A DNA stretch of 64,000 nucleotides from Eubacteriales bacterium. Its GTDB lineage: Bacteria > Bacillota > Clostridia > Oscillospirales > CAG-272. Below are positions 62,303 to 63,481 of the stretch, in pieces. Both the position numbers and the translations under genes were made by a program. The notes below the pieces were generated by a model. That model had not been told where the DNA came from, ran no database searches, and saw only the letters and a list, made by a program, of their open reading frames with translations. Location: positions 45,996-109,995 of the forward strand of contig JAZUKN010000102.1 in assembly GCA_045643285.1 (NCBI GenBank). The letters run 5' to 3'. Position 1 is the first letter of the stretch. Every line of letters begins with the position of its first letter.

Positions 62303-63481
62303 TCATTCTTCCTCCGCAAGAACACGAATACGATCTCCTGCTTTGCCGGATTTTATATCGTCGAGGTCGATGACCTTTATCTGAAGCTCGGACGCACGGT
62401 GGCGTGTGATGCTTCTGCACCGTTCCGCTGTAACGATAGCGGCTTTTGCACCCTTGCCGCCGAAACGGTCGCGCAGGATAGCCAGCTCGTTTATCGCCTC
62501 CGTGCTGACGGCGCAGGTCTTGCAGCTTATGAAGAAAGGCATAACGCCGCGCATCGTCATAACGTCGATCTCGTTTGTCACGCTGTCGCCGGAAAAACTG
62601 CCTTCCCAGTCGACGACTGCGCTTGTCACAACATCGCCGAATAGACCCGAATCAAGGCATAGCTTCCATACATACAGCTCAAGCACGCTTCCGACGTCTC
62701 TCATCCACGTCCGCACCTGCTGATCGGCAAACTCGAACGAAACGCTCTCACCGCGCTTTATTTTCAGCTTTTTGATGAATCCGAGCGAGGCGTAGTCTCT
62801 GAGGATCTCTTCGGGTGCATCGGTGCGCGAGCCGCGTCCTGTTTTTACCGTGTACGATGATTTAACGTACAGAGAGGGCTTTTTGTCTTTCTGCCCCTGC
62901 GAGACTTGCTGAATGAATGAAACAGCCTTTGTCCAACCCACGCGGTGCTTCATATATAGCTTGAAATACGGCTCGATCTTGTCGCTGTATCTGCCGAGAA
63001 TAGCGTTGTCGACTCTGCCTTTGCGGAGCGCACCGCCTGCCATGCGGAAGCAGTCTTCTACGCTGTGCTCAAGCGTGCAGGGAAGATTTTCGGCGAACGG
63101 AGCACCCGAGATGTTGAAAAACTTCTGCTTTCTGCGGCTGTAGGTGAACGCCGGAGTGCCGCACGACTTCGTCAGCATACCGCACGCGAAAAGTGCCGCC
63201 TCCGTTCCGCCGGTCAAGTCAACAACGCAGTCGGAATAAGTCTTTGTGACCTTTGTAAGCTGAGCGAGCAGTTTGTCGGCGTTGTACATCGACGATTCGA
63301 GAAAAATCGGCTCTGTTTTCAGCTTTCGGTAGGAAAAATACTCTTTGAGTTTCATTTTTAACAGCTTGTTCTGCGCCACCTCGGGAGGACAGAGAAAGAC
63401 TGTTTTCTCGGGCATAAATACCTCGGACGCGAGCACATTTTCTATCGGTCTGTCGTCGTAAAGCTCAATAAGCGTTTTCAT
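62303..63481 (-). CDS. Card1/Can2-like protein: N-terminal CARF-like Rossmann domain plus a C-terminal PD-(D/E)xK (DUF1887-type) nuclease domain
   Basis: The N-terminus (MKTLIELYDDRPIENVLASEVFMPEKTVFLC...VDLTGGTEAALF) resembles the Can2/Card1 N-terminus. The C-terminus (VLELYVW...NEIDVMTMRGVMPFFISCKT) resembles the DUF1887 nuclease core. The start was moved to the ATG at 63481. Confidence 0.65.
   Translation of the reverse strand: MKTLIELYDDRPIENVLASEVFMPEKTVFLCPPEVAQNKLLKMKLKEYFSYRKLKTEPIFLESSMYNADKLLAQLTKVTKTYSDCVVDLTGGTEAALFACGMLTKSCGTPAFTYSRRKQKFFNISGAPFAENLPCTLEHSVEDCFRMAGGALRKGRVDNAILGRYSDKIEPYFKLYMKHRVGWTKAVSFIQQVSQGQKDKKPSLYVKSSYTVKTGRGSRTDAPEEILRDYASLGFIKKLKIKRGESVSFEFADQQVRTWMRDVGSVLELYVWKLCLDSGLFGDVVTSAVVDWEGSFSGDSVTNEIDVMTMRGVMPFFISCKTCAVSTEAINELAILRDRFGGKGAKAAIVTAERCRSITRHRASELQIKVIDLDDIKSGKAGDRIRVLAEEE

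Follow-up and report, generated by a model that had tools for sequence, protein, structure and literature searches.

A DUF1887 nuclease encoded outside CRISPR loci in gut Clostridia combines a conserved active site with an altered CARF pocket

We studied a gene for a Card1/Can2-like protein, in which a CARF sensor domain is joined to a nuclease domain, in 64 kb of DNA from an Eubacteriales bacterium (contig JAZUKN010000102.1; this whole stretch is called the window below). We consider it probable that the protein is a stand-alone, CRISPR-independent orphan nuclease like VC1899 of Vibrio cholerae, with a competent active site that is gated by a ligand other than cyclic tetra-adenylate (cA4). 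The coding sequence lies on the minus strand, from an ATG at 63481 to a stop codon at 62303-62305, and its product of 392 amino acids (aa) begins MKTLIELYDDRPIENVL. An alternative TTG start at 63550 would lengthen the open reading frame (ORF), and the homologues all begin at the methionine of MKT. The exact 392-aa sequence had no record in the protein look-up, and a 99%-identical protein was found only on an 8.8-kb contig. The gene and its domains are as follows.

62303..63481, minus strand: coding sequence of a CARF plus PD-(D/E)xK nuclease (DUF1887 / Can2-Card1), from ORF translation, PADLOC, AlphaFold and Foldseek
63107..63481, minus strand: N-terminal CARF (Rossmann-like) domain, aa 1-125, from the secondary structure of the model and alignment with the SthCan2, Card1 and Crn1 CARF domains
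62702..63106, minus strand: helical/beta insertion (INS), aa 126-260, between CARF and nuclease, from the secondary structure of the model
62306..62701, minus strand: C-terminal PD-(D/E)xK (restriction-endonuclease-fold) domain, aa 261-392, from Pfam PF09002 and fold matches

The protein belongs to the DUF1887 / Card1-Can2 family. Pfam PF09002 (Card1_endonuc) matched aa 264-377 with an E value of 3.8e-8 (33.4 bits against a cut-off of 26.4), and the PADLOC profile CARF4--CARF_PDDEXK (PDLC01895) spanned aa 1-385 at 4.9e-45. The AlphaFold2 model of the 392-aa protein reached a pLDDT of 96.6 and a pTM of 0.93, and strands alternate with helices throughout its CARF domain (E3-7 through E120-125). 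Foldseek ranked VC1899 first among the PDB structures (E 1e-24, TM 0.75/0.77), followed by SthCan2, Cdn1, 8BAO, Card1 and TbrCan2, and the matches to VC1899, Can2, Cdn1 and Card1 spanned the whole chain with E values from 1e-24 to 1e-16. When a profile of 119 relatives was compared with the PDB sequences, it matched SthCan2 (7BDV) over the full length at 2.3e-22, VC1899 at 7.5e-20, 8BAO at 3.4e-17 and Card1 at 8e-11. The same profile touched the CARF ring nucleases weakly and in the N-terminal domain only (Sso2081, 0.006-0.02); the protein does not group with Crn1 and its kind, which degrade cA4, as it lacks their catalytic pocket Ser and Lys and carries a full nuclease domain. The same three-part layout, CARF-INS-nuclease, has been described for Can2 (PMC10783487). 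Thus, Pfam, PADLOC, profile, model and fold searches all agree with the two-domain Card1/Can2-like CARF nuclease that an initial annotation had proposed from the letters alone, and the profile-HMM (hidden Markov model) and structure comparison by which it wished to see the family likeness checked gave significant similarity (PDLC01895, 4.9e-45; VC1899, 1e-24). Its positions for TGGTE, E268, D306 and S319-C-K321 were all exact.

The residues that build the nuclease site are listed here.

62678..62680, minus strand: E268, helix Glu, the first E of E-ExD-(E/S)CK, invariant in the 119-sequence alignment A2
62564..62572, minus strand: E304-I-D306, metal-binding ExD pair on strand beta-2, invariant and aligned with SthCan2 E276/D278
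62519..62527, minus strand: S319-C320-K321, strand beta-3 residues of the (E/S)CK motif, without exception in 121 close and 119 diverse relatives
62486..62488, minus strand: E332, on the helix that follows beta-3, candidate for a carboxylate relocated within the active site, near-invariant in the clade and Lys in E-C-K proteins

The catalytic motif of the family has been published as E-ExD-(E/S)CK (PMC10783487), and the protein carries it in full as E268, E304-x-D306 and S319-C-K321. By its place in the motif E268 is the equivalent of TbrCan2 Glu304 (PMC10783487). The codon of D306 occupies nucleotides (nt) 62564-62566, and in SthCan2 the E276/D278 double mutant is inactive (PMC7969007). In alignment A2, which reaches down to 24% identity, G264, E268, E304, D306, S319, C320 and K321 were invariant, and E332 was at least 90% conserved across the 119 sequences. 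S-C-K was found in 121/121 close relatives (57-65% identity), and practically all of the 110 full-length cluster representatives, with identities as low as about 25%, had it as well. The catalytic residues are intact and conserved, and the enzyme is likely to be catalytically competent.

The initial annotation had pointed to Ser319 as a variant of the second acidic catalytic residue. We found that Ser319 indeed stands at the strand position where the aligned solved Can2, Card1 and VC1899 proteins carry Glu (E-C-K), so the substitution itself holds. However, the view that it is unusual or attenuating does not, since the motif is published as (E/S)CK and S-C-K is invariant in the clade. Moreover, the kind of observation that the annotation had named beforehand as overturning its point, an acidic residue supplied from nearby, was made: the near-invariant E332 lies on the next helix. 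We aligned the 86 full-length hits of a search with the SthCan2 sequence (the Can2 set) with the clade of our protein, and in this set E319 was paired with K, R or Q at position 332 in 64/64 proteins, while S319 was paired with E332 in 22/22. Lys occupies the position of E332 in all five solved E-C-K structures shown in the alignment. In Card1, the helix after beta-3 rotates upon activation and a conserved Lys reaches the scissile phosphate (PMC10783487); judged by the alignment, the Lys of the aligned 'YK' would be this residue. Two S-C-K...E proteins (P0307 and P0320) sit between cmr genes and cas1/cas2 in type III-B loci, and an E-C-K protein (P0285) sits in a csm-type locus. Sites of the S-C-K...E type are therefore among the regular arrangements found in functional CRISPR accessory nucleases. 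For a Can2 active site, S-C-K together with a helix Glu is normal and does not indicate decay.

These data bear on the proposal, also raised by the initial annotation, that the protein is a nuclease-dead or attenuated CARF regulator in which Ser has replaced the catalytic Glu. The Glu of E-x-K, a metal-binding helper in SthCan2 and Card1, is absent here as such a regulator would have it. However, E268, E304, D306 and K321 are invariant and E332 nearly so down to 24% identity, and CRISPR-embedded Can2 proteins use the same S-C-K...E site. TbrCan2 is an active two-metal DNase/RNase despite Ser356 at this position, and that Ser (equivalent to Card1 Glu308 and SthCan2 Glu291) contacts Mn via a water (PMC10783487). 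In addition, neither a DNA-binding helix-turn-helix nor any other output domain was found in the Pfam search or the AlphaFold model of the protein. We regard an attenuated regulator as highly improbable.

Two loops that line the CARF pocket differ from those of Can2.

63455..63466, minus strand: pocket loop after strand 1, E6-L-Y-D9, with D9 in place of SthCan2 Ser19, from alignments
63200..63220, minus strand: pocket loop after strand 4, D88-L-T-G-G-T-E94, against N-x-T-G-G-T-K in Can2, from alignment

SthCan2 contacts cA4 through Ser19, Thr42, Lys99 and Tyr118 (PMC7969007), and the NxTGGTK motif is reported to be conserved in all seven Can2 clades and to mediate binding of cyclic oligoadenylate (cOA) (PMC10783487). 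In the Can2 set, we counted Ser9 in 85/86, Asn88 in 86/86, Lys94 in 86/86 and Tyr113 in 84/86 proteins, and the four occurred together in 83/86, whichever active-site type the protein had. Our protein carries D9, D88, E94 and T113 at these positions, with E94 and T113 replacing SthCan2 Lys99 and Tyr118, so that both NxTGGTK and the Ser and Tyr contacts of Can2/Card1 are missing. The Glu that follows TGGT (TGGTE is aa 90-94, nt 63200-63214), which had been noticed from the letters as a replacement of Lys, was confirmed by alignment to solved Can2, Card1 and VC1899. Consistent with this, the Pfam family CARF_Card1 (PF23400) matched neither the protein nor any of its 120 closest homologues, and it matched 93/94 of the hits from the SthCan2 search, including every full-length hit. 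In the samples examined, presence or absence of NxTGGTK and PF23400 separates CRISPR-linked from orphan proteins. The cA4-binding signature (Ser, NxTGGTK, Tyr) has thus been lost, and the pocket is altered.

The altered pocket is itself conserved. Among 54 clade representatives, D9 was present in 50, D or E at position 88 in 52 and D or E at position 94 in 46, and the clade carries E6 where Can2 has Cys or Ser. Within the clade, E6, D9, N15, D88, G91, G92 and D/E94 are strongly conserved. So is the R339-F340-G341-G342 loop after the E332 helix in the 119-sequence alignment; the equivalent loop of TbrCan2 senses the ligand (PMC10783487). It was proposed in 2014 that loss of the basic residue after strand 4 marks CARF families with other ligands (PMC4012209). 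In VC1899, Asp likewise takes the place of Ser19 and the pocket is acidic, and cA4 fails to activate the protein (PMC7969007). Taken together, the pocket changes and the VC1899 precedent argue against activation by cA4, and the protein would be expected to be insensitive to it. Since the pocket and the R-F-G-G loop are conserved rather than decaying, a different ligand is favoured over no ligand, and we infer that a ligand other than cA4 exists.

We also weighed whether the protein may be a ligand-independent cellular nuclease, acting for example in DNA repair or RNA turnover and controlled by its expression or by protein partners, with the CARF domain as a dimerisation scaffold. The housekeeping neighbours of related genes (truA, mnmA, RNase T, RsgA, SHMT), the core-chromosome setting of the window and the weak, unregulated RNase activity of VC1899 would all suit such an enzyme. 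The pocket also varies between orphan groups, as an orphan group from the human gut has S9, A/G/E88 and GGSE, which argues against one shared ligand; the sole trait common to all orphan groups is the loss of Asn, Lys and Tyr together with an acid after GG(S/T). However, surface positions of this kind should drift in a pure scaffold, and in the clade the seven pocket positions named above and the relay helix-loop R339-F340-G341-G342 have both been kept. A ligand-independent nuclease therefore appears unlikely to us, while deserving some weight.

No CRISPR-Cas component was detected around the gene. In the 64-kb window, Rfam found no CRISPR repeat family, and a repeat scan that found arrays in all CRISPR-positive controls found none. 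At E <= 1e-4, PADLOC detected neither Cas nor Cas10 nor CD-NTase proteins among the 49 other window ORFs, and phmmer with 31 Cas seeds found nothing in the six-frame translation of the window. Rfam, array scan, PADLOC and phmmer thus bear out the earlier statement that the 64 kb hold no cas gene, CRISPR array or cyclase.

We then looked at the relatives. One genome per GTDB species was scanned with the closer alignment, A3, the diverse alignment A2 being too variable. Relatives were found in 353 species-representative genomes, and the branch counts more than 2,800 database relatives. The best 80 of the 353 genomes were all from Oscillospiraceae or other Clostridia, mostly gut or rumen metagenome-assembled genomes (MAGs), and also included Pseudoflavonifractor phocaeensis, Merdimmobilis hominis and Dysosmobacter. 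No homologues were found in GenBank phages, PLSDB plasmids or IMG/VR. The locus set consisted of the window, the 80 best loci and another 9 whose genes carried Pfam annotation. We found no CRISPR array in these 89 related loci or the window, and the 31 Cas seeds found nothing in their six-frame ORFs, whereas the control loci were matched. Cas10 models searched against 96 non-redundant flanking ORFs of 560-1100 aa matched only two spiked controls. Arrays and Cas proteins were also absent from 80 further metagenome loci of another S-C-K...E orphan group, the one from the human gut, which had been returned by a metagenome scan aimed at close relatives of the deep relative P0200 that found none of these. 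In total, about 170 related loci (about 2.3 Mb of flanks) were free of CRISPR and cas, while the same methods showed 4/4 CRISPR-type relatives to be embedded. A location in or next to a type III locus was therefore seen neither in the 64 kb nor in the about 170 related loci.

One candidate array, at L010 300-664, was rejected as a palindromic tandem repeat without unique spacers. It consists of six tandem copies of about 61 bp, each with an inverted repeat (TTTGGTCCTG...CAGGACCAAA), and is a repetitive extragenic palindromic (REP)-like array.

The immediate neighbours were heterogeneous and of housekeeping type, and no Pfam family occurred in more than 4/132 of them, TruA and a pyridoxal phosphate (PLP) enzyme being the most frequent. 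The examination of neighbourhood conservation that the initial annotation had called for thus found no conserved neighbour; a Peptidase_C11 gene lies no more than 10 kb away in at least 6 species. In several species truA precedes the nuclease gene on the same strand, with 1-15 nt between its stop and the nuclease start, as judged by Pfam-identified neighbours, and mnmA is a divergent neighbour in one other species; TruA, in 4/132 neighbours, marks a minority of loci. The truA-linked and tRNA-modification loci are given below.

L091 and L092, 9262-11176: truA-linked/tRNA-modification locus
L009, 9262-9999: truA-linked/tRNA-modification locus
L006, 1466-2227: truA-linked/tRNA-modification locus

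The genomic data have to be set against another explanation, in which a type III CRISPR-Cas system encoded at a distant site of the genome uses the protein in trans as an accessory effector and activates it by cOA or another Cas10 product. The whole architecture is conserved, including the R-F-G-G relay loop, the top-scoring characterised-type relatives by HMM are type III-B-embedded S-C-K...E Can2 proteins, and a type III-B locus contains P0200, whose N-terminal pocket motif is similarly acidic. The cas and cyclase search of this genome covered 64 kb. However, the about 170 related loci lack cas genes and arrays while the CRISPR-type relatives are embedded, and N88, K94 and Y113, (near-)invariant in CRISPR-linked Can2, have all been lost. 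The inheritance looks vertical, on the core chromosome and across hundreds of species, which sporadic type III systems would probably not predict, and VC1899 sets a precedent for cA4 insensitivity. We judge a trans-acting type III effector to be quite unlikely.

Several points weigh against the stand-alone, ligand-gated nuclease that we prefer. The lone-gene status covers the 64-kb window, and a type III system or another cyclase elsewhere in the genome would be compatible with it. P0200, which is 27% identical, belongs to a type III-B locus in which cmr2, RAMP, cas6 and cas1 genes and a 9-repeat array follow immediately downstream of it. Its motifs are ELYDD, DLTGGKELA, GFYID and S-C-K...E, so that it shares E6, D9 and D88, and it has kept the Tyr and a Lys adjacent to GG, neither of which is present in our protein. 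Acidic residues alone thus do not rule out a Cas10-made ligand, and the argument that an acidic pocket excludes any such ligand was weakened accordingly. The broad branch still holds CRISPR-linked members, of which P0200 is the only sampled one; three other deep relatives are orphans. As for the active site, E332 is placed there by alignment to published structures and would occupy it only as far as that alignment carries. E332 is not obligatory, as in a distant orphan subclade S-C-K goes together with a Lys on the helix. The S319/E332 pairing may go back to one ancestral event and not to repeated compensation. These two points weaken the idea of a 'perfect' S319/E332 compensation. Finally, VC1899, the closest analogue, has only weak residual RNase activity in vitro (PMC7969007).

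Two observations were made beside these. The distant subclade comprises P0431, P0436-P0443 and P0448-P0470, with S-C-K plus ELYKL and neither the strand nor the helix Glu; an example is L096 10001-11212 from a Campylobacter sp. MAG. In the type III-B locus of P0200 (L093 10001-21203), several effector-module genes encode proteins of 411, 231, 136 and 133 aa without a Pfam hit, and a gene for a reverse transcriptase fused to AEP (primase-polymerase) lies beyond the 9-repeat array.

We compared the protein with known systems. VC1899 (PDB 1XMX), the founding DUF1887 protein, has been a structural orphan since 2004 and is the best structural match. It has the same CARF-INS-nuclease layout without CRISPR linkage, keeps ExD and the catalytic Lys, and carries Asp9, the counterpart of our D9 at the SthCan2 Ser19 position, in an acidic pocket. 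However, the two proteins are only about 15% identical, VC1899 has E-C-K with a helix Lys where ours has S-C-K with a helix Glu, and after strand 4 VC1899 has the basic Arg96 and ours Glu94. Our protein shares with VC1899-like orphan CARF nucleases the architecture, the lack of CRISPR linkage and a replaced cA4-contact set. VC1899 comes from a different phylum, so the orphan status probably arose independently. This group is a functional and not a monophyletic one, and by sequence our protein is nearer to S-C-K-type Can2. VC1899 has been published as an orphan without activation by cA4 (PMC7969007), and an abundance of CARF genes away from CRISPR loci has been described (PMC4012209; PMC12669027); the orphan status that the initial annotation took as unusual is therefore not new.

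The cA4-activated proteins SthCan2, TsuCan2, TresuCard1 and Cdn1 share the fold, the E-ExD-(E/S)CK motif and the relay helix and loop with our protein. They differ by the pocket S...NxTGGTK...Y and the PF23400 match, neither of which our protein has, and they carry E-C-K with a helix Lys and are encoded inside type III loci (PMC10783487). The S-C-K...E Can2 proteins of type III-B (Desulforhopalus P0299/P0307; P0320) have an active-site configuration identical to ours and scored highest against the clade HMM (95-134 bits). They differ from our protein by a complete cA4-binding signature and by their location, with cmr genes on one side and cas1/cas2 on the other. With this HMM the S-C-K-type Can2 proteins reached a median of 116 bits against 73 for the E-C-K type, which suggests that the orphan branch arose from the S-C-K lineage of type III-B. 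TbrCan2 (clade 1, type III-D; motif E-ExD-SxTTS-K) has Ser at the position of the E-x-K Glu, as ours does, but lacks the strand Lys, uses the helix Lys K369 and has an SxTTS substrate-binding motif; it is also cA4-activated and CRISPR-embedded. In restriction endonucleases of the Cfr10I/NgoMIV type (PD...SxK...E), Ser replaces the (D/E) of (D/E)xK and Glu comes from the following helix. These are sequence-specific type II restriction enzymes without a CARF sensor, and the likeness of S319/E332 to them would be a mechanistic analogy only.

The surroundings of the gene are those of a core chromosome. The window encodes DnaE, MurB, RecN, formate-tetrahydrofolate ligase, ArgRS and a second aminoacyl-tRNA synthetase, and further PBP1, Hsp33, a CDF transporter, SLH/LRR surface proteins and a C11 peptidase. 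Two promoter candidates flank the nuclease gene.

63522..63550, minus strand: candidate own promoter (TTGCGC, 17 nt, extended -10 TGaTATAAT), recognised by eye and below the threshold of the consensus scan
62266..62293, minus strand: sigma-70-like promoter (TTGACT, 16 nt, TATAAT, 11/12) from the consensus scan, in the 83-nt downstream gap

Of the predicted promoter of the nuclease gene, the by-eye resemblance at 63550-63522 remains, but it fell below the scan threshold. The promoter at 62266..62293 would serve the Peptidase_C11 gene and mark the 3' boundary of the nuclease unit; no terminator was found in the 83-nt gap before it. The Peptidase_C11 (clostripain-family) gene lies directly downstream at 59649-62219 on the minus strand (Pfam 5.8e-47), and its product of 856 aa has a Gly/Ser-rich N-terminal region. 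A C11 orthologue (51-56% identity) lies at most 10 kb from the nuclease gene in at least 6 species, with varying distance and orientation.

L020, 11217-13847: C11 orthologue
L060, 11252-13765: C11 orthologue
L001, 4138-6585: C11 orthologue
L009, 17154-19574: C11 orthologue
L091, 17155-19569: C11 orthologue

In the syntenic genomes the nuclease showed 56-62% identity against 51-56% for the C11 orthologue, and this similar divergence is consistent with vertical descent. We rejected a functional link between the two genes on the basis of the variable spacing and orientation, the strong promoter of the C11 gene itself and the divergence in step, which indicates residual synteny and not an operon. 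In L001 2197-8813 (and likewise in L002 and L003), a CotJC-like Mn-catalase gene downstream of cotJA/cotJB appears to be split into pieces of 86 and 131 aa. The insert of about 6 kb carries a serine recombinase, a Peptidase_C11 and a HerA/DUF87 ATPase and resembles a sporulation-excised intervening element.

Further observations concern the rest of the window. PADLOC hits to mad3, mad8, LmuB, PtuA and AriA were rejected as a defence system, because they were gone once the ORF of RecN (SMC_N/AAA_23; 33455-35149, plus strand) was omitted and so reflect generic SMC/ABC-ATPase similarity. A separate window ORF still matches RmrA (3e-13) and mad2 (1e-15) in PADLOC. Rfam placed a Gut-1 RNA at 38849-38924 on the minus strand (57 bits; gathering score 50), in the gap immediately before the DnaE gene (38952), and TRF calls this stretch (38837-38931) an imperfect repeat of 20-22 nt. 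A ZMP/ZTP riboswitch at 18149-18229 on the plus strand (49 bits) precedes the ORFs 18249-20203 and formate-tetrahydrofolate ligase (20222-21898), its usual folate/purine context.

Based on the above results, we propose how the stand-alone nuclease would work. It would be a homodimeric, metal-dependent DUF1887 nuclease composed of CARF sensor, insertion domain and PD-(D/E)xK nuclease, with the complete site 'E...ExD...SCK...E' made up of E268, E304, D306, S319, K321 and E332. Ser319 may take a water-mediated role at the metal site as TbrCan2 Ser356 does, and Glu332 on the adjacent helix may give the carboxylate that E-C-K enzymes hold on the strand. The chromosomally inherited branch, mainly of Oscillospiraceae and other gut Clostridia, would have descended from S-C-K...E type III-B accessory nucleases, left the CRISPR locus and had its pocket remodelled, with the conserved acidic residues E6, D9, D88 and E94 in place of the cA4 signature. 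A ligand other than cA4 would gate the nuclease allosterically through the CARF pocket and the R-F-G-G relay loop, and this signal would not come from a neighbouring cyclase, the same situation as in the orphan VC1899. To our knowledge, no orphan CARF protein has a known ligand, though orphans are common. The ligand could be a host-made or a stress- or phage-induced small molecule, a cationic metabolite or a metal-bridged nucleotide. As a comparable case, a stand-alone TIR-SAVED effector has been reported to sense host c-di-AMP (bioRxiv 10.1101/2025.06.19.660554).

Orphan DUF1887 proteins and the (E/S)CK variation are already published. What is new here is descriptive: how large the Clostridial branch is, that it is consistently free of CRISPR, which pocket residues have changed, and the pairing of E/K or S/E at the active site. 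The branch is very large (more than 2,800 relatives, at least 353 species) and has an intact nuclease site together with a conserved pocket of altered charge. For annotation, type III CRISPR signalling should not be read into a 'Can2/Card1' label of such genes, and the cultured gut members (Pseudoflavonifractor, Merdimmobilis, Dysosmobacter) are a practical starting set for ligand hunting. We tentatively put forward, as a possibility, that gut Clostridia hold a large, vertically inherited family of CARF nucleases that is uncoupled from CRISPR and senses a non-cOA ligand with an anionic pocket; if this is true, it would amount to a CRISPR-independent CARF signalling pathway.

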